Assembly (NCBI GenBank): GCA_035537875.1
Contig: DATLLJ010000002.1
Location: 104,283-168,282, forward strand
Length of the DNA stretch: 64,000 nt
Reading direction: 5' to 3'
From: Vicinamibacterales bacterium
GTDB lineage: Bacteria; Acidobacteriota; Vicinamibacteria; Vicinamibacterales; CAVVIG01
This document shows, in pieces, positions 21,548 to 33,144 of this stretch. The position numbers and the translations under genes were made by a program. The first letter of the stretch is position 1; each line of letters starts with the position of its first letter. The notes under the pieces were generated by a model. The model was not told the origin of the DNA, did not search any database, and saw only the letters and a list, made by a program, of their open reading frames with translations.

Positions 21548-23245
21548 ATGCGTGTAGGCAACAAGCTCACTCGTCGTCAGCTGGTTCGTGGCAGCGCGGC
21601 GGCTGGCCTGGCGGCCGCGCTGGGGTGCGCCGGACGCTCGACAGGAGGAACGGCGCCGGCGGCCGCGCAGCGCGGCCCGAATGCAGGAGAACAGGCGAGC
21701 GATGACCTCGTGTTGATCAACGGACGCATCCACACGATGGATCGCACCAACACGATCGCTACGCAGGTGGCGATCAGGAACGGCCGCTTCTCGCTGGTGG
21801 GTGGACAGCTCCCCGCCTCCGGCGCGCGGGTCATCGACCTGCAGGGCCGGACGGTGGTGCCGGGCCTCATCGACAACCACAACCACATCGTGCTGATGGG
21901 GAATCGGCCTGGCTACCACACGCCGCTCGAGAACGCTTCATCGATTCGCGACGTCCAGGAAACCGTGGCGGCGCGAGCCACCGGTATTCCACGCGGCAGC
22001 TGGATCACCACGATTGGCGGGTTTCACCGGAACCAGCTGGTTCGCCCGGGAGAGTCGCCTCGGTTTCCCACGCTGTCGGAGCTCGATTCAGCCTCACCCG
22101 ACAATCCCGTGTACATCTCCGAGTCGTTCATGGGACCGTCGACGACCAACAGCGCGGGCAAACGGTTCTTCGACAGCCAGTCGCCGCCGATACCGGTCGG
22201 CGCAGACGGCTCGATTGCCGCGGGAGCGCAGGCCACGGGCCGGGCCACGCTTGCGCTGCGCCAGACGCTGCAGACGTTCGAGCAGCGGAAGCGCGGCGCC
22301 ACGGACGCCCTCGCCTACGGCCTCAGCGTCGGCGTCACGACGCACCTCGACCAGGGTGCCTTCCAGGCGACCAACACGCCGAACGACGGCGCGGCCCACG
22401 AAGACAACTACGCGATGCACCTGCCCTTTCTCGCCCTGCGCGCCGAGGGCAAGCTGCCCGCGCGGCTTCGAATCAATTTCCTTCACCAGGACGCCACGCC
22501 CGACCTGACGACTCTGAGCGAACGGATCGAGAACAGCTTCCCGTTTTTCGGCGACGACATGGTTCGCACGGGAGGCATCGGAGAGTTCATCGCCGGCGGC
22601 GGGGCCAACAGCCCGTTCGTCGAGGCTGCGAGGCGATTGGCTCGTGCCGGCTGGCGCGCCGAGGTGCACTCGCTGAGCAGGACCGACTTCGAACAGGAGA
22701 TTCAGGGTTACGAAGCCGCTCACGCCGACTCGCCGATCACGGATCTGCGCTGGGTGATCGCTCACGTGCCCTTCATCACCGAACCGTGGGTGAACAGGCT
22801 GAAGGCACTGGGCGGCGGGCTCTCGCTGACCAGCTGGCGCTATCTGGCAGGGACTCCGGAACAGAATGGACCGCCCTTCCGGATGATCGTGGACAACGGC
22901 ATTCCTGTCGGCATGAGCTCGGACGGGATGCAGATCGCTCCGATGAACCCGTGGCTGCACATGTACTATGCGACGACCGGATTGAACGCGCAGCAGGTCC
23001 TCATCAACGGCGGTCAGCAGATCTCCAGGCAGGAAGTCCTGAAGTTGTACACGTCGAACAACGGCTGGTTCCTTCGCGAGGAGAACCAGCTCGGGTCCAT
23101 CGAGGCGGGAAAGCTGGCCGACCTCGTGGTCCTGAGCCACGACTACTTCACGGTCCCCGACCAGGATCTCAAACGGATCCGTTCGGTCCTCACCATCGTC
23201 GGCGGACAGATCACCCACGATGCGACTGCGTCATCAATCGGGTAA
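21548..23245 (+). CDS. Exported amidohydrolase (amidohydrolase_3/YtcJ-like)
   Basis: 565 aa with Tat-like signal TRRQLVRGSAAAGLAAALGCAG. Family features are LINGRIHTMD...PGLIDNHNH...GSIEAGKLADLVVL. Confidence 0.85.
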   Translation: MRVGNKLTRRQLVRGSAAAGLAAALGCAGRSTGGTAPAAAQRGPNAGEQASDDLVLINGRIHTMDRTNTIATQVAIRNGRFSLVGGQLPASGARVIDLQGRTVVPGLIDNHNHIVLMGNRPGYHTPLENASSIRDVQETVAARATGIPRGSWITTIGGFHRNQLVRPGESPRFPTLSELDSASPDNPVYISESFMGPSTTNSAGKRFFDSQSPPIPVGADGSIAAGAQATGRATLALRQTLQTFEQRKRGATDALAYGLSVGVTTHLDQGAFQATNTPNDGAAHEDNYAMHLPFLALRAEGKLPARLRINFLHQDATPDLTTLSERIENSFPFFGDDMVRTGGIGEFIAGGGANSPFVEAARRLARAGWRAEVHSLSRTDFEQEIQGYEAAHADSPITDLRWVIAHVPFITEPWVNRLKALGGGLSLTSWRYLAGTPEQNGPPFRMIVDNGIPVGMSSDGMQIAPMNPWLHMYYATTGLNAQQVLINGGQQISRQEVLKLYTSNNGWFLREENQLGSIEAGKLADLVVLSHDYFTVPDQDLKRIRSVLTIVGGQITHDATASSIG

Positions 23246-23347
23246 TTGGATAATCGGGTAATCGGGTAATTGATGGGGGCATTGAGGGTTTCGGCCAATC
23301 ACCCAATCAATTACCCGATTACCCAATTACCCGATTACTCAATTCAT
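23233..23347. repeat. AT-rich inverted repeat built from 8-bp periodic units (long hairpin, probable bidirectional terminator or REP-like element)
   Basis: The left arm is AATCGGGT AATTGGAT AATCGGGT AATCGGGT AATTGATG. The right arm is TTACCCGA TTACCCAA TTACCCGA TTACTCAA. Positions 23256-23274 pair perfectly (19 bp) with 23306-23324, and imperfect pairing continues out to 23233/23347. Both convergent stop codons lie inside the arms. Confidence 0.7.
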
Positions 23348-25050
23348 TGTGCGATGGTCTTCCAATTCCTCGCCAGATAGTCGGCCGTCCGCCATGCGAG
23401 CGCCTGGGCGGTGAGCGTCGGATTGCGGGCGCCGCTCGTGCCCATCACCGACGCACCGAGCACGCCCAGATTGGGCGCCTCATGCGAAAAGCCCCAACGG
23501 TCGACCACGTTGGTGTCGGGGTTGGTGCCCATGCGCGTCCCGCCGTAGGCATGCGTCGTCGGGCCCATCGTGCCGATGCCAGCCTTGATCGTCGCGATGG
23601 CGCCGGACTCCATGAACCACGCCTCCATCTTGTCCTGGATGAAGGCGGCCAGCTTTCTCTCGTTGTCTTTGTGATCCGCCGTGATCCGGCACACCGGGAA
23701 TCCGAGAGGGTCGGTGACGGTCGGATCGAGATCGAGGTAGTTGTCTTCGTACGGCAGCGTGGTCTTCTGGAGGTAGGCGGAATTCGTCCGATCCGCATTC
23801 TCCTTGACGAACGCCTTCCACGCCGAGCCCCACTGGGGCGCTCTTCCGAACGTCGCCATCGTGGCGGCGCCGATGGGGCGTCGATCAGAGTAGACCCACA
23901 GGTTCCCACCACCGATGAAATCGAGTCCGGAGTGATCGAAGTTGTCGTCGGCCCAGTCGTCCACGGCGGTCCCTTGCGCAGGGAGACCGTACCAGTTGTT
24001 CAAATTGCGCGGAAAGAGGGCCGTAACGGCTGCGCCCTGATTGTGACTGAAGTAATGCCGGCCCACCTGCCCGTGGGTGTTCGACAGCCCGTTCGGGTAC
24101 GCCTTGGACTTCGAGAGCAGGAGAAGACGGACGTTCTCGTAGACGTAGCTCGCCAGCAGCACGACCGCAGCAGGTTGAAAGAACTCCTCGCCGTTCTTGA
24201 GATAGTTCACACCACGTACGCGACGGTTGGCGTCCACTTCGATCGTCGTCACCGTGGCCTGATCGACGACCTCGAGGCGTTTGGTTGCTTGCGCTCTGGG
24301 GATTGTCGTGACGGCGGTGGAATTCTTGGCATTGATATGGCACCCGCCGCGGCTGCAGAAGCCGTGATAGGCGCAGGCCGCTCGGTTCTGATACGTGCGC
24401 GAGTTGATCGCCGCCGGCCCTGGAAACGGATGCCATCCAAGCTTGCGTGCCGCCGACGCCATCATTTCGGTGAAACCGGTTCCCCGAAGAGGCGGCATTG
24501 GATACTCGCGACGGCGCGCGCCTTCGAAAATGTTGCCGCGTGGATCGGTCCTACCGCCGAGATTCCCGGCCTTGCCGGACACGCCAAGCTCGATCTCGAC
24601 CTTCTCGTAAAACGGCTCCAGCTCGTCGAGTCCGAACGGCCAGTCCTCAACCGTCGAACCCTTGGGGATGCGTGAAGCGCCGTACCGTTTGGTCGTCTCG
24701 CTGACCACCTTGAAGTCCCAGGGACTAAGGCGCCAACTCTGCGCCCAGTAGTGAAGGCTCGTCCCGCCAACGGCGTTCATCATGGGATGAATCGCCGGTC
24801 TGGGCGAGTACGGCGCCGATGCGTTGGGCCTGTGGGTGGGGACCTCGCGATTGGCCTTCTGCACCGCCTGCGGCCAGCCACGGAAGTTGTTTCGAAGTTC
24901 GTCAGGCGCAAAATCCGATGGGCTCAGCCAGCCGCCGGCCTCGAGGCCGACCACTTCGAGACCAGCCTGCGCGAGCGGAAGCGCCGCGACGCCGCCAACC
25001 GCTCCGAGACCGATGATCACGACGTCCTTGGGCGGCAGATTAGTCGCCAT
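23344..25050 (-). CDS. GMC-family FAD oxidoreductase (large subunit, gluconate 2-dehydrogenase-like)
   Basis: 568 aa. The N-terminal DVVIIGLGAVGGVAALPLAQAGLEVVGLEAGG is an FAD Rossmann motif, and the C-terminal part is GMC-like. Confidence 0.85.
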   Translation of the reverse strand: MATNLPPKDVVIIGLGAVGGVAALPLAQAGLEVVGLEAGGWLSPSDFAPDELRNNFRGWPQAVQKANREVPTHRPNASAPYSPRPAIHPMMNAVGGTSLHYWAQSWRLSPWDFKVVSETTKRYGASRIPKGSTVEDWPFGLDELEPFYEKVEIELGVSGKAGNLGGRTDPRGNIFEGARRREYPMPPLRGTGFTEMMASAARKLGWHPFPGPAAINSRTYQNRAACAYHGFCSRGGCHINAKNSTAVTTIPRAQATKRLEVVDQATVTTIEVDANRRVRGVNYLKNGEEFFQPAAVVLLASYVYENVRLLLLSKSKAYPNGLSNTHGQVGRHYFSHNQGAAVTALFPRNLNNWYGLPAQGTAVDDWADDNFDHSGLDFIGGGNLWVYSDRRPIGAATMATFGRAPQWGSAWKAFVKENADRTNSAYLQKTTLPYEDNYLDLDPTVTDPLGFPVCRITADHKDNERKLAAFIQDKMEAWFMESGAIATIKAGIGTMGPTTHAYGGTRMGTNPDTNVVDRWGFSHEAPNLGVLGASVMGTSGARNPTLTAQALAWRTADYLARNWKTIAQ

Positions 25051-25777
25051 GATGCGGCTCCCCTTTCGCAGCGTTCCCGTCCGAGCGGCTCGCCCTGGCG
25101 GGTCGTCTGTTCGAAAACATCGGCTCGTCGTAAGCCGACTTGCGAGTCGGCGTCAGCCGGGGATCCAGACGCTGATCGCTTTCAGACACCGCGAGACGAA
25201 GACCGGGGTATCCGAGCAGGTCCCATCCGACGAAGTTGGCGTTCCCACCGTAGTAGGGATCGCAGAACGTACCCTGGATCGTATGAGTGCGGACGAGGTT
25301 GAAGAAGGAGGCGGCATTCGGCGTGAAGCCGGTGGCAACGTTGTCCTCCATATCTTTCAAGACGGCGTCCTGATCGCGAGCCGTGAGATCGACAAAGCGC
25401 GACCCCTTCGACGTCCGCGCGTACGCATCGACGGCGCTCAGCCCGTTCCGATACGCCTCACGGGAAGAGGCCAGCGCACCGCCGAGAGCCCGATCGATGT
25501 AACGGGCGGCCCGTGCCTCCGTGGCGCCCGGCCCGTTGTCGTCGGTGGGAATCAGACGCGCCCCGATCGCCTCCACGATCTCCGCCTCTGCGGCCGTGAG
25601 TGTCTCCAGGGCCTCGCGTGGTGCCTGTCCCGCCTGGGGTGAAGCGGCCTGCGCCGGCAGCGCGGGCGAGGGCAGCAGCATGGCCGGCACGGTGGCGGCC
25701 GCGCCGGCGATGCCGACTCGTTTGAGGAGTTCGCGACGGGAAAGCGCTGGCCTCTCGTCTTCCGAGTGATTCGCCAT
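25040..25777 (-). CDS. Gluconate 2-dehydrogenase subunit 3-family protein (Tat-exported small subunit)
   Basis: The ATG at 25777 follows AGGAGG and gives MANHSEDERPALSRRELLKRVGIAGAAATVPAML. The gene overlaps the GMC start by 11 nt. Confidence 0.75.
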   Translation of the reverse strand: MANHSEDERPALSRRELLKRVGIAGAAATVPAMLLPSPALPAQAASPQAGQAPREALETLTAAEAEIVEAIGARLIPTDDNGPGATEARAARYIDRALGGALASSREAYRNGLSAVDAYARTSKGSRFVDLTARDQDAVLKDMEDNVATGFTPNAASFFNLVRTHTIQGTFCDPYYGGNANFVGWDLLGYPGLRLAVSESDQRLDPRLTPTRKSAYDEPMFSNRRPARASRSDGNAAKGEPHHGD

Positions 25778-25898
25778 CAGTGACCTCCTGGTGCTGTTTC
25801 CCGATGCCGACAAGAGGATACTTCGTGTCTTCACGGCCGAACTCGGCTATCCTCGGGCGTCCCGAATGAGGCCACCCTCGGTTCAGGAGGACCAGTCC

Positions 25899-26369
25899 AT
25901 GAAGAGACTCCTCGCCACTATCGTGTTCGTGTGCATGGGAGTATCCGCCCATACGTACGCGCAGACGCCGACAACGGCTCTGGCGGCCGATCCCGGCCTC
26001 AAGCAGAAGATCCTCGCGCTCGAGGCCAGGCGCATTGCGGCCATGGTGAACAAGGACATGGCCACCCTCGACTCGATTCTTGCCGAAGATCTCACGTACA
26101 CCCATTCCGGTGGACGGACCGATACGAAGGCGGCTTTCATGGCGCTGATCGGCGGCCCGGACAACCGGTATCTGGGTGTGGACTACACGAGCACCGAGGT
26201 CATTCCGACGGGGAACGCGGTGATCGTACGTGGGGTGGCCCAGATCCGCCTCGGCGAAGGCCCGCGAGGGCCAGCCACCAGCTACCCGGTTCTGTTTCTC
26301 GACGTCTATGCGCTGCGAAATGGCGTCTGGCAGATGGTGGCGTGGCAGGCCACTCGTCCCGGCGACTAG
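25899..26369 (+). CDS. Secreted DUF4440/NTF2-like protein
   Basis: The ATG at 25899 follows AGGAGG and gives MKRLLATIVFVCMGVSAHTYAQ. The body has LEARRIAAMVNKDMATLDSILAEDLTYTH...NGVWQMVAWQAT. Confidence 0.7.
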   Translation: MKRLLATIVFVCMGVSAHTYAQTPTTALAADPGLKQKILALEARRIAAMVNKDMATLDSILAEDLTYTHSGGRTDTKAAFMALIGGPDNRYLGVDYTSTEVIPTGNAVIVRGVAQIRLGEGPRGPATSYPVLFLDVYALRNGVWQMVAWQATRPGD

Positions 26370-26413: not shown

Positions 26414-29400
26414 TCAGTTCTGAAGCAGACGGGTCGCGAGACGACCGGAACTGCCCCGCAAGAGCGACTCCCGCACCCGTCGTGAAGCGTCCGATGCGTG
26501 TAATGGCAGGTGAATCTTCGCGGTCATATCGCCGCCCGGTTCGACCGTCATCCACAGGTGGCCGTGACAATCGCTGATGAGCGCCTGAAGCGCGCCGAGG
26601 TCGACTCCGGCTTTGGCCGCTGATTTATCGGGGCTCGGCGTGGTCGGGTTGCCGCGAAGCCCCAGCGGCCCGTCCTGCATCGCCCGCCTGATCTCCTTGA
26701 CCGTGATCAGCGCGTGAGGACCGAGACGGACGTTGGGATGCTTTGCGATGAATTGGCCATCGACGACGATGGTTGCCAGTTCGATCCTCAGTCGGCCACC
26801 GTAGGGCAGGCGCTCCCGGCAGTAACTGGCCAGATTGACGAGGAGTCTTTCGACCCGCTTCGGCTTGACATCCACCTTGAGCAGAGAAGCGGCCCTGGGC
26901 ATTTCGAGCTCGACATCGTCTCCGGCGACGCGCTTCAGAACCGGCTCGAGATCGCGTAAGACCCTGTTCAAATCGACCGGCGGAAGACTGCTGATCTCTT
27001 CGTCCCCGTACACGGCGAGCTGTCGAAGGAAGCTGGCGGCGCGCTTCACCTCATCAAGCACCTGTTGACCTTGCTGCCGCATGGCCGCGTCGGTGTCGAC
27101 AGTCGCCAGCCACTGCTCGACGTCCTGATGGATCTCGTTGAGCAGATTGCCACAGGTGACAGCGACTTCCGACGCCAGCCGTCCGACGGCTTCCATCCGG
27201 TGGGCGTCGCCGAGCCTGTCCTGGAGGGCACGAAGATTCGTCAGATCTTCGGCGACGATCTGGATGAGGTCAGGAGAAGATACGGCTGCCGACAGGCGAA
27301 CGAAGAGGCGGCTTCCATTTCTGTGCTTCCACGTGGTCTCCAGTGATTCCTTCGCGTTCGTGCTCAGGCAGCGCTCGAGCAGATACGACAGGTCCCCCGG
27401 TGATTCGAAGACCGAAGCGGCGAAGCCCGCGCCCCGCAGTTCGTCCGCCTTCCGACAGCCGACCAGGACCTCAAAGGCGCGGTTCGCCTCGATGAGCCCG
27501 CCGTCGCGGGTGCATCGGCAGAGCGGCAGGGGAGAAGTCTCGAACTGCCGACGATTCTCTGTCCGACTGTCATCGAGCCGCTTCTGCAGTTGGGGCACGC
27601 GGTTGGCTTCAGCCTGCAGAACCTCGTGACGGCTTCGAAAGCCATCGAGCTCCTGAATCGTCGCTGTGAGCTTCCCTTTGAGCTGCTCGATTTCCCGGTT
27701 TCGCGTCGCCAGCGTCGTCCGCAAACCGGTCTGAAGCTGGGTCCGCTCGTTCTCTGACGCCTGCAAGGCCGCCGCGTGCCGCGCTGCCTGCTCTTTGAAG
27801 CGAGCGTCACGCTCGCTGACGGAAGCGACCAGCGTCGCCACCGCGACGGCATGCTCGTTCGAGGCCCGATCGAATGCCTGTTGAAGGTCCCTCTGAGCCT
27901 CCAGGTACTGCTGAGCCTCGGCCTTCATGCGTTCTCGAATGGTTTCGACTTCCCCGGTCAACGAATCGCGTTCCAGCGTGAGGCGCTGGAGACGATCGTG
28001 CAGCTCAGCCAGCCGACTCTCCTGGTCACGTCGCTCTCGAGCGATCTCTTCTTCGAGTCGCGACACATGCTCGCGCGCACGCGCGGCGGCGGCTGCGGCC
28101 TCCTCGTGGAGACGCCGTTCGGTCTCAGCTGCGGTGGATCGCGTCTCCGCAACGTTGCGCTCCAACGCTTCGCGCTGTTCGGTTTCCCGAGTAAGCCGCG
28201 CTTCAAGCGCCGAGTACTGCTCTGACGCCGCCGCATGCTCCCGGATGGCGAGCTCGGCGGCTTCCTGGAGTGCGGTCGTCGCCTCGGCCAGCTGCAACTG
28301 GAGCGAATCACGGGTTGCGGCCGTCTCGGCAAGCTGCGATGCAAGCTGCATCTCGCGCTCGCCGGCCGCTTTCAGTTCACCGGTGGCGCGTTCATCCGCT
28401 TCCCTGAGTGCGATCGCCGCCTCGGTCAAGCGCTGCTCGAGGGCCCGGTGAGTTGCGGCCCCATCGGCGAGCTGGGCCGTGAGCTCCGCCTCGCGCATCG
28501 TCAAGCGCTCGACGTCGGCGGTGATCGATTCATGCTTGCGCAGGGTCACCGAGAGAGCCGACGCCAATTCTCGCGCCTGCTCGTCCAGGGCATTTCGTGC
28601 GGTCGCCACCTCGGTCAGCTGCTGATCGAGCGCCTCTCGGGCCGCGGTCGCGTCGGCAAGTCGGGATACGAGGTCCGCTTCACGCGCCTCGGCTGCCTGT
28701 CGCTCGCTGCTGGCGCGTTCGTCTGCTTCTTGGAGCGCGGTCGTCGCCTCCGTGAGCCGCAGATCGAGCGTCTGGCCAGTCGAGGCCGCGTCGGCAAGGT
28801 GGGATGCGAGCTCCGCTTCACGCGCGTCGGCCGCACGCCGTTCGCCCGCGGCGCGCTCGTTCGCTTCTTGGAGCGCGGCCGTCGCCTCCGTCAGCCGCAG
28901 CTCGAGCGTCTGGCGAGTCGAGGCCGACTCGGCAAGGTGGGACGAGAGCTCCGCCTCCCGAAGGGTCAAACGTTCGACGTCGGCCGTGACCGACTCATGG
29001 TTACGGAGAGTTGCCGAGAGAGCCGCCGCCAATTCGCGCGCCTGTTCATCCAGGGAATTTCGTGCGGCCGCTACCTCGGTCAGCTGCTGCTCGAGCGTCT
29101 GCCGGATCTCGGCAGCCTCGGCAAGTTCGGACGAGAGGTCCGCCTGACGCGCAAGAGCTGCCTGTCGTTCCCGCCCGGTGCGCTCGTCCGCTTCCTGGAG
29201 CGCGGCCGTCGCCTCCGTGAGCCGCAGCTCGAACGACTGGCGGGCGTGTATCGCCTCCGACAGCTGCGAGGCGAGTTCCGCCTCCCGCGCCCCGGCGGCC
29301 TGCCGTTCGCGGGTGGCGCGTTCGTTCGCCTCGTGGAGGGCCGTCGTCAACTCCGTCAGTCGCAGCTCGAGCGCCTGCCGGCTCGAGGCCGCGTCGGCAA

Positions 29401-31375
29401 GTTGGGACGAAAGCTCCGCCTCACGCTGCGTCAGGCGCTCGACGTCAGCAGCGGCCGACTCGTGGCTGCTCTGGACCGAGGAGAGGGCCGCCGACAGTTC
29501 GCGCGCCTGCTGCTCAAACGTATCTCGAGCCGCTGCTGCCTCGGTCACACGCTGCTCAAGGACCTGACGGGTGTGAACGGCGTCGGCAAGCTGGGATGCA
29601 AGCTCCGCTTCACGCGCGGCGGCCGCCTCCCGTTCGCTTGTGGCGCGTGCGTGCGCTTCTTCGAGCGCGCTCGTCACATCCATCAGTCGCAGCTCGAGCG
29701 CTTGACGGGCAGCGCCCGCGTCCGCAAGCTGCGAGGCGACGTCCGCCTGTCGCCGCGTTAAACGCTCGACGTCGGCGGTGGCCGACTCGTGGTTGCGCCG
29801 GGCCACGGTGAGGGCCGCCGACAGTTCGCGCGCCTGCTGGTCCAGCGCATGGCGTGCGGTGACCGCCTCGGTCAACTCGGCGTCGAACTGTGCCTGGCGC
29901 TCGGAAAGGGCGGCCGCGGCGCTTGTCATCGCCGACGCATGTCGCTCCTCAAGCTCCCGCAGGGCGATTTCCGTCTGGGCGAGGGTCTGTTCGAGGGCGG
30001 CGCGCGATGCACGCTCCTCACGAACCACCTGGTCGAGCTCCGCCTGTCGCGCGGCGGCCGCCTGCCGTTCGCGGGTTACCCGCTCGTCCGCCTCTGTGAG
30101 CGCCGTCGCCGCTTCCGCCAGCCCCAGTTCGAGCGTCTCGCGAGTGTGGACCGCGTCGGCAAGCTGCGAGGCGAGCTCCGCTTGTCGCGCGGCGGCCGCC
30201 TGCTGTTCGCGGGTTACGCGCTCGTCGGCCTCTGTGAGCGCCGCCGCCGCTTCCGCCAGCCCCAGTTCGAGCGTCTCGCGAGTGTGGACCGCGTCGGCAA
30301 GCTGCGAGGCGAGCTCCGCTTCGCGATGCCTCAGACGCTCGACGTCGGCAATGGCCGTCGCATGGTTCTGCCTGGCCCGGTGCACCTCGATGGCCGCCAC
30401 GCGCAGCTGCTCGTCGATCATGTCCCGCATGGCCGCGGCGCGCGCAATCGCGATGTCGTGCTTCGCCTGACGTTCGGCCAGCTGACTGGCGGCGGCGGTC
30501 AGCGCCGACTGGTGGCGCTGCTCCGCATCCTGAAGTGCGGCCTTGACATCGACGAGCTCCTCCTCGAGGCTGCCGCGCGCCTCGCGCTCCAATTGAACAA
30601 CGCGTTCGAGCTTCGTTTCGCGATCGGCCGCCGCCGACTGTTCGGCTGCCCGGCTCTGTTCACGCTGCCGCAGCAAGGCCTCCACGTCGGCCAGGCGATC
30701 CTGGAGCGCCGACTTACTGCGAACCGCATCGGCCAGCCTCGCGTCCAGTGCCTGCCACTGCGCGAGCCGATCCGCCGCCGGTGAATCCGAGGCTGTCGCC
30801 CGTCTGGCGCGATCGAGCAACGCTTGCACGTCAGCCGGTATAGGTGCGGCGCCGACGCGCGTCGCGCTGGTTCCCGTCGGCCGGAGAGGCTGCGAGGGTT
30901 GCTTTACGTCCAAAGTCTCAACCTTGTGAGTGCGCGCTGGCGCGATCGGCTCCCTGGATGAACGCTCGCGGTCGCCATCGACAGGCGTATGCGCAATCGC
31001 TCGAGTGATGGCCCCCGCAAGAGCGCCGACGTTCTTGGCGGTGTGAACGCCAGCGCCCACGTGGGCCGATTCGAGCTCGAGGCTTGCGCCGTCTGGCGAG
31101 ATGACCACGACCGGGGCAGTGAGCCCAAGGCGCCGAACCTGGGCCAGAAACGCGTTGAAGTTTTCACTGCTGAGCTGGGTTTCCGCGACGACAGCCGCCA
31201 CGTCAGGGTTTTGTTCAATCCGGTGCGTGGCATGGTCGAAGTGAGTGGCCCACAAGACCTTAACCGTTGGCGTTACGCTGTAGAGCGCAGCGGCAACAGC
31301 CTGGGCATCGGTGCGCGCGGTGGCGACATAGAGAATCTTCATGCACTCGGGCGAACTTGTGAGAATTCGCCGCAC
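26414..31375 (-). CDS. Giant coiled-coil signalling-like protein: receiver-like domain, ~1100-aa coiled coil, PAS domain, degenerate histidine-kinase core
   Basis: This is a single 1653-codon ORF; the likely start is MKILYVAT at 31342. Residues 12-130 are CheY-like. Residues ~190-1281 are rich in A/E/R/L/Q, contain almost no Pro or Gly, and include tandem repeats. Residues 1282-1390 are PAS-like. Residues 1391-1415 (HRMEAVGRLASEVAVTCGNLLNEI) are HisKA-like. Residues 1467-1640 are HATPase_c-like (VDLNRVLRDLEPVLKRVAGDDVELE...RLLVNLASYCRERLPYGGRLRIE...). Confidence 0.85.
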   Translation of the reverse strand: MRRILTSSPECMKILYVATARTDAQAVAAALYSVTPTVKVLWATHFDHATHRIEQNPDVAAVVAETQLSSENFNAFLAQVRRLGLTAPVVVISPDGASLELESAHVGAGVHTAKNVGALAGAITRAIAHTPVDGDRERSSREPIAPARTHKVETLDVKQPSQPLRPTGTSATRVGAAPIPADVQALLDRARRATASDSPAADRLAQWQALDARLADAVRSKSALQDRLADVEALLRQREQSRAAEQSAAADRETKLERVVQLEREARGSLEEELVDVKAALQDAEQRHQSALTAAASQLAERQAKHDIAIARAAAMRDMIDEQLRVAAIEVHRARQNHATAIADVERLRHREAELASQLADAVHTRETLELGLAEAAAALTEADERVTREQQAAAARQAELASQLADAVHTRETLELGLAEAATALTEADERVTRERQAAAARQAELDQVVREERASRAALEQTLAQTEIALRELEERHASAMTSAAAALSERQAQFDAELTEAVTARHALDQQARELSAALTVARRNHESATADVERLTRRQADVASQLADAGAARQALELRLMDVTSALEEAHARATSEREAAAAREAELASQLADAVHTRQVLEQRVTEAAAARDTFEQQARELSAALSSVQSSHESAAADVERLTQREAELSSQLADAASSRQALELRLTELTTALHEANERATRERQAAGAREAELASQLSEAIHARQSFELRLTEATAALQEADERTGRERQAALARQADLSSELAEAAEIRQTLEQQLTEVAAARNSLDEQARELAAALSATLRNHESVTADVERLTLREAELSSHLAESASTRQTLELRLTEATAALQEANERAAGERRAADAREAELASHLADAASTGQTLDLRLTEATTALQEADERASSERQAAEAREADLVSRLADATAAREALDQQLTEVATARNALDEQARELASALSVTLRKHESITADVERLTMREAELTAQLADGAATHRALEQRLTEAAIALREADERATGELKAAGEREMQLASQLAETAATRDSLQLQLAEATTALQEAAELAIREHAAASEQYSALEARLTRETEQREALERNVAETRSTAAETERRLHEEAAAAAARAREHVSRLEEEIARERRDQESRLAELHDRLQRLTLERDSLTGEVETIRERMKAEAQQYLEAQRDLQQAFDRASNEHAVAVATLVASVSERDARFKEQAARHAAALQASENERTQLQTGLRTTLATRNREIEQLKGKLTATIQELDGFRSRHEVLQAEANRVPQLQKRLDDSRTENRRQFETSPLPLCRCTRDGGLIEANRAFEVLVGCRKADELRGAGFAASVFESPGDLSYLLERCLSTNAKESLETTWKHRNGSRLFVRLSAAVSSPDLIQIVAEDLTNLRALQDRLGDAHRMEAVGRLASEVAVTCGNLLNEIHQDVEQWLATVDTDAAMRQQGQQVLDEVKRAASFLRQLAVYGDEEISSLPPVDLNRVLRDLEPVLKRVAGDDVELEMPRAASLLKVDVKPKRVERLLVNLASYCRERLPYGGRLRIELATIVVDGQFIAKHPNVRLGPHALITVKEIRRAMQDGPLGLRGNPTTPSPDKSAAKAGVDLGALQALISDCHGHLWMTVEPGGDMTAKIHLPLHASDASRRVRESLLRGSSGRLATRLLQN
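28220..30325 (-). repeat. In-frame tandem repeat array inside the giant gene (138-bp A units, 189-bp B units, 465-bp A-A-B super-repeat)
   Basis: Nine 46-aa A units have the consensus REAELASQLADAxxxRQxLELRLTEATxALQEADERxxRERQAAxA. Three clear 63-aa B units have the consensus RxAxLxSxLAxAxxxRxxLxQQLTEVAxARNxLDEQARELxxALSxTLRxHESxTADVERLTx. The two N-terminal A units (30188-30325 and 30050-30187) differ at only about 4 of 138 nt. Confidence 0.9.
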
Positions 31376-31459: not shown

Positions 31460-32176
31460 CTAGTTGATGGCCTTGTACAAGCGTTCGTCGAGCGGGCTTC
31501 CGGAAATCGGCTGCAGCTCGTCTCGGTACTGTTTGGTGTGCGCCGCGGCGGCGTGCGCGTCGAGCGCGCTCTGATTCTGCCACGTTTCGATGACCGTGAA
31601 GTGATTGCCGCGCATCGCGTGTTGCAGGACATCGAAGCGCAGGTTCCCGGGCTCCTTGCGGCTTGCCTCGGCCAGGCGGCGAAGCAGCGTCGGGGCGTCA
31701 GCCTTCCCACCCTGAGCGCTCGGGGCAGCGTCGACATGAGCCACGATGTGAACGGCCTGGCCGTCTCCCTGACCGGTCGTCGAACCGACGGTCAGCGTCT
31801 TGTACGGGCGCAGATCGTAGCCGCTCACTCGACCGGGCTGAAGCGCCTCCTGAAACTGCTTTACGTGTGCGGCATCGCGCCGGGCCTCGTACGCGACCTG
31901 ATCCCGCCACGTTTCGACAATCGCGAAATGTCCGGGCCAGCCCACCTGCTCGAACGCGTCCAGTCGCCCGAATCCGGCATCCTTGCTGCTCGCCGTCCGG
32001 TACTGTTTCAGGGCGGCGACCATCGTCGCCCTCGCCGAAGGCGCGATTTCGACATACGCCACGGCGTAGAAAGCACTGTCGCCAGCGACCTGGGCGCGGG
32101 CTGGAACGCCTTGCCCGGCTGCAAGCAGGCTCGCTCCAATGAGGAGGCACATGCGGTGAGGCATCGGAAACTCCAT
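31460..32176 (-). CDS. Tandem ABM (antibiotic biosynthesis monooxygenase-like) domain protein with signal peptide
   Basis: 238 aa with two repeats of the ferredoxin-like ABM pattern (FAIVETWRDQVAYEARRDAAHVKQF and FTVIETWQNQSALDAHAAAAHTKQY). Confidence 0.75.
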   Translation of the reverse strand: MEFPMPHRMCLLIGASLLAAGQGVPARAQVAGDSAFYAVAYVEIAPSARATMVAALKQYRTASSKDAGFGRLDAFEQVGWPGHFAIVETWRDQVAYEARRDAAHVKQFQEALQPGRVSGYDLRPYKTLTVGSTTGQGDGQAVHIVAHVDAAPSAQGGKADAPTLLRRLAEASRKEPGNLRFDVLQHAMRGNHFTVIETWQNQSALDAHAAAAHTKQYRDELQPISGSPLDERLYKAIN

Positions 32177-32195
32177 TCTGAAAGCGTTTCAGTCC

Positions 32196-32681
32196 TTACT
32201 TCCAGGAGGCGATGGCTTTCCCCTGCAGCGAATCGGGTCCGAACTCGAAGAGTTCGATTCTGATGCCACCCGGAGCTGTCGCGTTCGCGACCGCTGAATC
32301 CTGCCGGCCGGCGCGCGGATCCTCCACGGTCACGCCGCGCTGCTTCAGGGTTGCGACCGCATCGTGCAGGTTCTCGACGTGGAGCCCGAAGTGCGTCAGC
32401 CCGGGCGGCCGCGTGGCATTGGACGGCTGCAACTCGACGAACGTATCGCGGCTCACCTGCACGTAGGCCAGCGTGGGCTGTCCTTTCTCGTCGCGTACGG
32501 TGAACGCTTCGCGAAATCCCATCTTCTGAGTGTAGAAGGTGAAAGCCTCGTCGAAATTCTCGACGCTGACGCCGACGTGGTTCAGGTAGTTCATGCCGGC
32601 AAGCCGGCCGCCCTGCGCGAAGCCCGGCGCGACAAGCGCTCCAACGACCATTCCAAGGAGAAACCCGGCTGACGCACGCAT
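32196..32681 (-). CDS. VOC (glyoxalase/bleomycin-resistance/dioxygenase) family protein with signal peptide
   Basis: The ATG at 32681 follows AAGGAGG and gives MRASAGFLLGMVVGALVAPGFAQG. Family features are LNHVGVSVENFDEAFTFYTQKMGF...HFGLHVENL. Confidence 0.75.
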   Translation of the reverse strand: MRASAGFLLGMVVGALVAPGFAQGGRLAGMNYLNHVGVSVENFDEAFTFYTQKMGFREAFTVRDEKGQPTLAYVQVSRDTFVELQPSNATRPPGLTHFGLHVENLHDAVATLKQRGVTVEDPRAGRQDSAVANATAPGGIRIELFEFGPDSLQGKAIASWK

Positions 32682-32691
32682 TGCCGCCTCC

Positions 32692-33144
32692 TTACGCTGC
32701 CACCCGCGTACTTTGACTCGCGACACATTGCCATCGGCCGTCACGGAACACGAACACGTCGACGTACCGGAACGTCACCGCCAGCGGCTTCCCCTTGCTG
32801 GGTCCCAGGAGATGCTGCGACATCCAGACGACCGCCGTGTCTCCGTAGATCTTGACGATGAATTCGTCGAGCGTGGACGAATCGATCTGCTGATCGAAGG
32901 TGGCGGCGCGGGACAGCTCTTCGTCGCGGTCGCCGCGGGTCCCGTCGCCGTAGGTCGCGACGAACTCCTCGGCCAGGATTCCCGCGATGAAAGCCACGTC
33001 CCTGCGGCGAAACGCGGCGTCCCAGTCGTGCTCGAGCTGAATGAGAATCTGCTGATCCGACTTCACTGCCGCGGTCTGGCCGCCGGAAACCGTTGCGACG
33101 CATACGGCGGCGAGCAGAGCGACGAGGACCGAGCACCGGATCAT
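32692..33144 (-). CDS. Secreted DUF4440/NTF2-like protein
   Basis: 150 aa with a signal peptide, then ILIQLEHDWDAAFRRRDVAFIAGILAEEF...FRDGRWQCVASQST. Confidence 0.7.
   Translation of the reverse strand: MIRCSVLVALLAAVCVATVSGGQTAAVKSDQQILIQLEHDWDAAFRRRDVAFIAGILAEEFVATYGDGTRGDRDEELSRAATFDQQIDSSTLDEFIVKIYGDTAVVWMSQHLLGPSKGKPLAVTFRYVDVFVFRDGRWQCVASQSTRVAA

Follow-up and report, generated by a model that had tools for sequence, protein, structure and literature searches.

What is the long, internally repetitive gene of this locus, and does its repeat array change in length? The window, by which we mean the whole stretch of 64,000 nucleotides (nt) from a Vicinamibacterales bacterium (assembly GCA_035537875.1, contig DATLLJ010000002.1, positions 104,283 to 168,282), carries on its minus strand an open reading frame (ORF) listed as 26414..31375, which encodes 1653 amino acids (aa) from a GTG start at 31375. 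An earlier note on this DNA had described hierarchical tandem repeats in the coiled coil of the encoded protein, with a very recent duplication of 138 bp, and had proposed a stalk of variable length. We consider it quite likely that the array forms the central, repetitive part of a long rod in a catalytically dead protein of two-component type, that its modules are remodelled by recombination and that it serves as a spacer or scaffold. Residue numbers are those of the 1653-aa protein counted from the GTG start throughout, as in the earlier note.

Residues 351-1052 could be parsed as A-A-C-A-B-A-A-B-A-A-B-A-A, in agreement with the original description: nine A units of 46 aa, three B units of 63 aa and one C unit of 99 aa use up the 702 residues exactly and map to 28220-30325. 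Tandem Repeats Finder (TRF), a check that the earlier note had proposed, independently found periods of 138 nt (30034-30321, 2.1 copies, 96% matches) and of 465 nt (28247-29465 and 28464-29748, 2.6-2.8 copies, 75-76% matches). Hidden Markov models built from the units recovered every A unit at independent E-values (iE) of 1e-21 to 1e-25 and every B unit, which ends in the conserved motif ADVERLTxRE, at 1e-36 to 1e-38. The repeats are real and far beyond chance. The array also begins before residue 351, with a further C-type unit, C0, and weaker unit-like similarity reaches residue ~210 on one side and residue ~1146 on the other. Along the gene, the units are arranged as follows.

30326..30622, minus strand: C0 (residues 252-350), an extra C-type unit upstream of the array of the earlier note; 43% identity to C3 by blastp, E=3e-24
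30188..30325, minus strand: A1 (residues 351-396), from the unit parse
30050..30187, minus strand: A2 (residues 397-442), separated from A1 by 6 differences in 138 nt
29753..30049, minus strand: C3 (residues 443-541), a homolog of A+B from which 10 aa are deleted
29426..29752, minus strand: A4-B5 (residues 542-650), from the unit parse
28961..29425, minus strand: A6-A7-B8 (residues 651-805), super-repeat copy 1, from TRF and the unit parse
28496..28960, minus strand: A9-A10-B11 (residues 806-960), super-repeat copy 2, which differs from copy 1 at 100 of 465 nt (dS 0.50)
28220..28495, minus strand: A12-A13 (residues 961-1052), the A units that have diverged furthest
27611..28219, minus strand: distal rod (residues 1053-1255), non-repetitive or degenerate, collinear with the ortholog

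The C type aligned with A+B at 41-43% identity (E=1e-19 to 1e-21), so that there are in reality two types of module; the C units would then be fusions of an A' and a B unit. The proposed A-A-B super-repeat of 155 aa (465 bp) held as an arrangement, but a hierarchy was not reflected in sequence similarity, since A pairs in register with it (26, 36, 37, 44 and 42 differences) were no closer to each other than pairs out of register (27, 34, 45, 42 and 34). A1 and A2, reported to differ at about 4 of 138 nt, in fact differed at six, four of them internal and two at the unit junction, with three synonymous and three nonsynonymous changes. The remaining A units were far more diverged, as the earlier note had it: other A pairs differed at 23-53 of 138 nt, and the second-closest pair was again an adjacent one, A9/A10, with 23 differences.

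Comparison with relatives revealed how such an array evolves. A protein search gave 88 clear family members, 930-1840 aa in length, which without exception have the N- and C-terminal modules in common and vary in their middle parts; a profile scan of GTDB species genomes gave 170 relatives. One of them, P0001, is encoded on contig L001, which shows synteny to the window (DUF4440, glyoxalase, ABM, the big gene, DUF4440, GMC oxidoreductase, amidohydrolase); P0001 is for this reason regarded as the positional ortholog. The two proteins were collinear through C0-A-A-C-A and again over the last 600 residues. Between these parts P0001 showed insertions and deletions of whole units, namely an extra A unit and one missing block of the size of A-A-B; two of its A units carried 18-aa insertions, and it had a 173-aa B-A*-A super-repeat of its own. 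Its total length nearly equals that of the window protein. Repeat number thus differed between species by whole units, and modules do turn over between species. Tandem arrays occurred in 32 of the 81 family genes examined; their periods ran from 84 to 519 nt and were all multiples of 3, and in 12 of the 81 the arrays reached at least 90% identity. An array far more striking and younger than that of the window was seen at L003:1443-7265 (CAWFEX010000001.1, a 410-kb contig), where ~six A-C super-units of ~435 nt follow each other and two neighbouring units differ at 8 of 435 nt.

The synonymous and nonsynonymous divergences allowed us to date the events relative to each other. Between A1 and A2, dS was 0.083 and dN 0.031; between the copies of the A-A-B super-repeat they were 0.50 and 0.178, and between blocks of the window protein and of the ortholog 0.6-1.0 and 0.10-0.32. 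The units were under purifying selection (mean pN 0.22 against pS 0.46). With a dS about one tenth of that to the ortholog, the A1/A2 event is some ten times younger than the species split, young yet not brand new. The pair is indeed much younger than the other units, but the wording of a very recent, simple 138-bp duplication goes too far, both on account of this dS and of what is found in the ortholog. There, two diverged A units (hA0 and hA1) occupied the exact slots of A1 and A2; 53 of 138 nt separated the two, against 38-47 of 138 between either of them and the window copies. The next relatives, P0002 and P0003, had a single A unit in this slot. Two scenarios of two events each would account for this pattern: an ancestral duplication followed by gene conversion in the lineage of the window, or two independent duplications. 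Homogenisation by gene conversion appears at least as likely as a net gain of a unit, given that in the ortholog both slots are already filled by diverged A units.

We infer a recombination mechanism from these data. The in-frame DNA repeats (138, 189 and 465 nt) would let misaligned homologous recombination or replication slippage add and remove whole modules, and gene conversion would homogenise neighbouring ones. The A1/A2 pair would be the latest such event, most likely the homogenisation of two ancestral slots, or else an independent re-duplication. Changes in the number of units would alter the length of the rod without disturbing the terminal domains, and the rod may work as an evolvable spacer or scaffold.

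If turnover were still in progress, rod length might be expected to vary between strains, as the earlier note had proposed. As a proxy for a comparison of strains we took seven clusters of family members that are at least 90% identical, with ~51 near-full-length sequences from independent samples. The lengths were as follows.

Cluster 1: 1408 aa, 11 members at that length
Cluster 2: 1840 aa, 10 members at that length
Cluster 3: 1422 aa, 10 members at that length
Cluster 4: 991 aa, 6 members at that length
Cluster 5: 951 aa, 10 members at that length
Cluster 7: 1287 aa, 4 members at that length

The few deviations in length, including all of those in cluster 6, were alternative starts or truncations, and internal insertions or deletions were found in none of the near-full-length members of the seven clusters. 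Even the 1840-aa cluster, that of P0005, was length-invariant although it has a repeat as young as A1/A2 (38 of 40 residues identical at an offset of 92 aa in an ungapped offset scan). The idea of a strain-variable stalk thus found no support in these proxy clusters, whose power is limited as many members are more than 99% identical. Gain and loss of units by recombination or slippage fits the differences between species (the indels of P0001 and the arrays in 32 of 81 genes) but not the close relatives, among which no change of length was seen. Judged by these clusters, and within their limited power, repeat number is not hypervariable: length is plastic between species and stable within them. 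We also considered a contingency or phase-variation locus and rejected it, as the periods are all multiples of 3, the protein is predicted to be cytoplasmic and close relatives do not differ in length.

The array is embedded in a protein whose domains are arranged in the order aspartate-less pseudo-receiver, proline-rich linker, rod, putative PAS domain and CckA-like DHp-CA module without the histidine and the ATP-binding motifs.

26414..31342, minus strand: whole gene, encoding a 1642-aa protein; homologs and the ortholog begin at MKILY
30971..31342, minus strand: putative aspartate-less pseudo-receiver (residues 12-135), from the family profile, Pfam matches in relatives, AF2 and Foldseek
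30779..30970, minus strand: proline-rich linker (residues 136-199), with eight Pro here and nine in residues 125-200
27611..30778, minus strand: proline-free alpha-helical rod (residues 200-1255, 1056 aa), from composition, periodicity and AF2
27218..27559, minus strand: putative PAS domain (residues 1273-1386), from TIGR00229 and Pfam PAS scores
26498..27211, minus strand: putative CckA-like DHp-CA pseudokinase module (residues 1389-1626), from the alignment with PDB 5idj

The true start is probably the ATG at 31342, which gives 1642 aa, and the listed GTG would be 11 codons too far upstream, because the internal MKILY is where the closest ortholog and other homologs start; we saw no clear Shine-Dalgarno sequence ahead of this ATG. 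We found neither a transmembrane segment nor a signal sequence in the protein, the maximum KD19 being 1.35. For want of a hydrophobic segment the protein is predicted to be cytoplasmic, and the word stalk, which hints at a surface protein, is misleading. A Pfam scan of the protein gave a sub-threshold PAS domain as its sole match, and an NCBIfam scan a weak CckA-like kinase region and a PAS domain just at threshold.

The rod has the properties of a coiled coil, as the earlier note had assumed. Residues 200-1255 contain no Pro and 15 Gly; they are 23% A, 14% E, 12% L and 12% R, and are rich in Q as well. Hydrophobicity had a period of 3.53 aa with a power of 5.3, against a shuffle maximum of 1.45. 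This is close to 46/13 (3.54): an A unit corresponds to six heptads plus a 4-residue stutter, with 13 core positions, and a B unit to nine heptads. AF2 predicted A-B-A-A-B (residues 542-805, 264 aa) as a single unbroken helix with a pLDDT of 87, in a single-sequence model of the monomer. Heptad-type periodicity over a long helix free of breakers is what characterizes a two-stranded coiled coil. The DHp four-helix bundle of histidine kinases is a parallel homodimer and, since the C-terminal DHp homolog is dimeric, the rod is most likely a parallel dimeric coiled coil as well. If this coiled coil is continuous, the rod would be ~157 nm long, each A unit adding ~6.8 nm and each A-A-B ~23 nm.

At the N-terminus, a single-sequence search of the PDB gave no match, and the family profile was needed: that of the N-terminal 135 aa matched PDB receivers over their full length (E=8.7e-6). 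Pfam Response_reg matched 15 of 36 family members. The AF2 model (pLDDT 82) had the (beta-alpha)5 topology with the order E-H-E-H-E-H-E-H-E-H, and Foldseek related it to many REC structures (TM ~0.7, E=1e-5). The CheY-like (beta-alpha)5 fold of PF00072 is thus present, but the three Asp among the five catalytic residues are not: Ala-Thr replace the DD after beta1 and Glu54 stands at the acceptor position at the end of beta3. Ser82, at the T/S position after beta4, and Lys104, at the K position after beta5, are kept, and a minority of family members have an Asp at the acceptor position. By the definition in PMC12632262 the domain is, as far as model and alignment tell, an aspartate-less pseudo-receiver. 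The proline-rich linker that follows is probably flexible.

The C-terminal module showed the same pattern of a kept fold and lost residues. The putative PAS domain scored 23.4 bits with TIGR00229 (cut-off 22.9) and 19.5 bits with Pfam PAS, below the cut-off of 22.6; several homologs carry precomputed PAS matches. The C-terminal 398 aa matched the CckA structure PDB 5idj over 238 residues (E=2.5e-8), which establishes homology to a DHp-CA core. With the NCBIfam CckA model the score was 66 bits, far under the equivalog cut-off, and Pfam HisKA and HATPase_c did not match the protein even at E=0.1. In the H-box, AHDFNN of CckA is AVTCGN, with the phospho-acceptor His replaced by Val; in the N-box, NLAVNARDA is NLASYCRER, with Asn replaced by Tyr (NARD to YCRE); in the ATP-binding boxes G1 and G2, DDGPG is KEIRR and GTGLGL is AGVDLG. 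These substitutions were conserved across 89 family sequences, including the Val and the following Thr-Cys. By the definition in PMC12632262 the module would be a histidine pseudokinase, predicted to be catalytically dead. The family alignment further contained an invariant Cys two residues past the lost His (AVTC). The CA-like domain had a C(G/H)GHLW motif that hardly varied, and the PAS domain the motif RC(T). Cysteines kept in this way by a kinase predicted to be dead might serve redox or metal sensing.

Other explanations of the array have to be weighed against the remodelled rod that we favor. A1/A2 may go back to a simple and very recent tandem duplication, by which an actively expanding and contracting array gained a unit, with strain-variable rod length; this is a serious alternative, though a clearly less probable one. 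The two units are 96% identical whereas the others differ by 17-38%, young arrays exist in 12 of 81 family genes and, as P0002 and P0003 have one A in the slot, independent duplications need as many events as duplication plus conversion. The syntenic ortholog, however, has two A units in the same slots, further from each other (53 of 138 nt) than either is from the window copies (38-47), the pair has already gathered six substitutions at a dS of 0.083, and active expansion is hard to reconcile with seven clusters and ~51 near-full-length sequences devoid of internal length change, the P0005 cluster with its equally young repeat included. It is very improbable that the 138-bp pair or the unit count arose by mis-assembly of short reads over the repeats. 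A unit of 138 bp is near the typical length of a short read, and repeats of 74-96% identity are a classic cause of collapse or expansion, but there are 6 differences between A1 and A2 and the frame is kept, the ortholog, on an independent contig, has the same two slots and an almost equal total length, and analogous arrays occur in independent assemblies, including contigs of 0.4-4 Mb.

Two further alternatives concern function and fold. The repeats could be multivalent binding modules whose copy number is selected for avidity and not for rod length. Purifying selection on the units would fit, as would the motif at the end of B, ADVERLTxREAEL, which is conserved among units and in the family consensus; we nevertheless find this unlikely, as unit types, periods and counts vary widely in the family (rods of 294-1628 aa), conserved positions are mostly those of the heptad core, and we found no conserved neighbour gene and know no partner. 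A spectrin repeat has ~106 aa, and the lengths of C (99 aa) and A+B (109 aa) come near it, so that the repeats might fold back as three-helix bundles of ~100-109 aa. This idea has hardly any chance of being right, and we rejected it: the absence of Pro and the low Gly content over 1056 aa, the continuous 3.53-residue periodicity and the unbroken helix of the single-sequence monomer model all speak against it.

Several points also weigh against the rod as we read it. The number of units is that of the assembled contig, and no relative in the genome and metagenome collections searched was close enough to reveal polymorphism of this gene. Gene conversion is favored over independent duplication mildly, by distance gaps of 1-2 standard deviations over 138 sites. 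Oligomeric state and orientation of the rod are predicted from the dimeric DHp homolog. Since the proline-rich linker parts the receiver from the rod, helix continuity gives no argument for a signaling role of the rod, and no neighbour gene conserved family-wide hints at a role in the cell.

As to the distribution of the family, the best 76 of the 170 relatives in GTDB genomes were nearly all from Vicinamibacterales or from soil metagenome-assembled genomes (MAGs) of Acidobacteriota, and several genomes had two paralogs. In four such MAGs the paralogs differed in rod length (L003 and L045, L035 and L073, L002 and L004, L064 and L072). In the databases the relatives are called 'hypothetical', 'PAS domain' or 'chromosome segregation ATPase' and nothing more specific, and our literature searches did not turn up a paper that describes the family. 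For the window protein, a look-up of the exact sequence gave no match. The closest relative in the GTDB genomes had 62% identity; a metagenome scan that started from the N-terminal 339 aa gave no confirmed relatives, and one with the C-terminal profile gave 51 loci, none above 65% identity. At many MAG loci on long contigs, for example L045:4481-7585, L008, L026 and L073, the gene was split into at least two ORFs, and the N-terminal receiver part was encoded by an ORF of its own upstream; the cause could be frameshifts from sequencing errors, or these genes could be pseudogenes.

The neighbours of the gene in the window are metabolic genes that are not conserved across the family. The block shared with L001 covers 21548-26369 and 31460-33144 (amidohydrolase, GMC oxidoreductase, DUF4440/SnoaL, the gene itself, ABM monooxygenase, glyoxalase, DUF4440) and is probably not functionally linked to the gene, because it is not kept in the wider family. 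The best neighbour cluster was present at 16 of 77 loci, with no constant side or strand, and comprised Ser/Thr kinases, hybrid histidine kinases and transporters.

Another observation concerned the opposite strand, where two very long ORFs had been ascribed to the repeats.

28235..29761, plus strand: antisense 'shadow' ORF, not a gene; codon-aligned antisense frame, rare TTA/CTA/TCA codons
29789..30784, plus strand: antisense 'shadow' ORF, not a gene; codon-aligned antisense frame, rare TTA/CTA/TCA codons

Stops in the codon-aligned antisense frame come only from sense TTA, CTA and TCA codons, of which the gene has 11 in 1653, with a GC content at third codon positions (GC3) of 0.76. Non-repetitive neighbour genes had equally long antisense stop-free runs of 312, 378, 442 and 554 codons. 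The ORFs are thus an effect of codon usage and not of the repeats, and we rejected them as real genes, since the scarcity of these codons explains their lengths. In this window of 64.6% GC, antisense ORFs of 300-550 codons face most genes in the same frame, and other claims of overlapping ORFs in the window need to be read with this effect in mind.

Which known systems does the protein resemble? By its residues it is predicted to lack catalytic activity both as a receiver and as a histidine kinase. In Myxococcus xanthus, the N-terminal receiver of FrzS lacks the phosphorylatable Asp and leads into an extensive coiled coil, which is thought to dimerise the protein; FrzS acts as a localisation scaffold (PMC1974792, PMC9811614, PMC12632262). 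FrzS and AglZ resemble the window protein in having an N-terminal pseudo-receiver and then a long coiled coil, a likeness of architecture only; they lack the C-terminal PAS-DHp-CA part, whereas the rod of the window protein is ~1056 aa long, modularly repetitive and acidobacterial. LvrB (Rec-alphaS-DHp-CA) is a homodimer with receiver, coiled-coil helix and DHp-CA (PMC13269768), the same order as here, and the NCBIfam scan gave a weak match to it. In LvrB, however, a 21-residue signaling helix continues alpha5 of the receiver and both Asp and His are functional, while the window protein has a proline-rich linker, a rod of ~1056 residues and an intervening putative PAS domain, and has lost the Asp, the His and the ATP-binding residues. 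DivL of Caulobacter (PMC4211667) and PsmA of Streptomyces (PMC12963549) contain PAS domains, lack the H-box His and take part in interactions and scaffolding in cell polarity. Neither has a giant repetitive coiled coil, PsmA has a disordered spacer and a C-terminal receiver, and their relation to the window protein extends to the general histidine-kinase fold only. Scy and FilP of Streptomyces are, like the window protein, very long bacterial coiled coils with a higher-order repeat that is not a heptad, but they lack signaling-type terminal domains and their repeat length is different. Walshaw, Gillespie and Kelemen reportedly described a 51-residue repeat in Scy in 2010.

The host family is widespread in abundant soil Acidobacteria and unannotated, and joins a putative pseudo-receiver and a putative pseudo-histidine-kinase by a rod of up to ~240 nm. 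Tentatively, and with more doubt than confidence, we suggest that it may form an undescribed, Vicinamibacterales-specific class of cytoskeletal or scaffold 'rulers', in which a decommissioned two-component system provides the end-pieces of a rod of 45-240 nm whose length would be tuned in steps of ~7 nm, through gain, loss and conversion of modules, and would be fixed within a species. If this is true, the family would offer a candidate scaffold or ruler for a phylum about whose cell biology hardly anything is known.

The repeat array, for its part, belongs to a known phenomenon. In-frame modular repeats in coiled coils have long been known from the streptococcal M protein, to judge from Hollingshead et al. 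1987 as listed in PMC2189173. Like the window protein, the M protein has several classes of in-frame tandem repeats in blocks (A, B, C) of a coiled-coil rod, and in both the outer repeats are diverged while some neighbours are near-identical. The M protein, however, is secreted, wall-anchored, under immune selection and present in size variants among strains, whereas the window protein is predicted to be cytoplasmic and has end domains of signaling type. Thus, in-frame repeat blocks are shared with the M-protein type, secretion and anchoring are not, and polymorphism in repeat number is missing as far as the proxy clusters alone can tell. Finding repeats here changes nothing in itself, as this is the textbook way in which long coiled coils grow and shrink. 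All in all, the array represents ordinary coiled-coil evolution and is a further example of what is known from the M protein, made clean by a syntenic ortholog and ~200 family members in which the turnover of whole modules, and probably gene conversion, can be followed.

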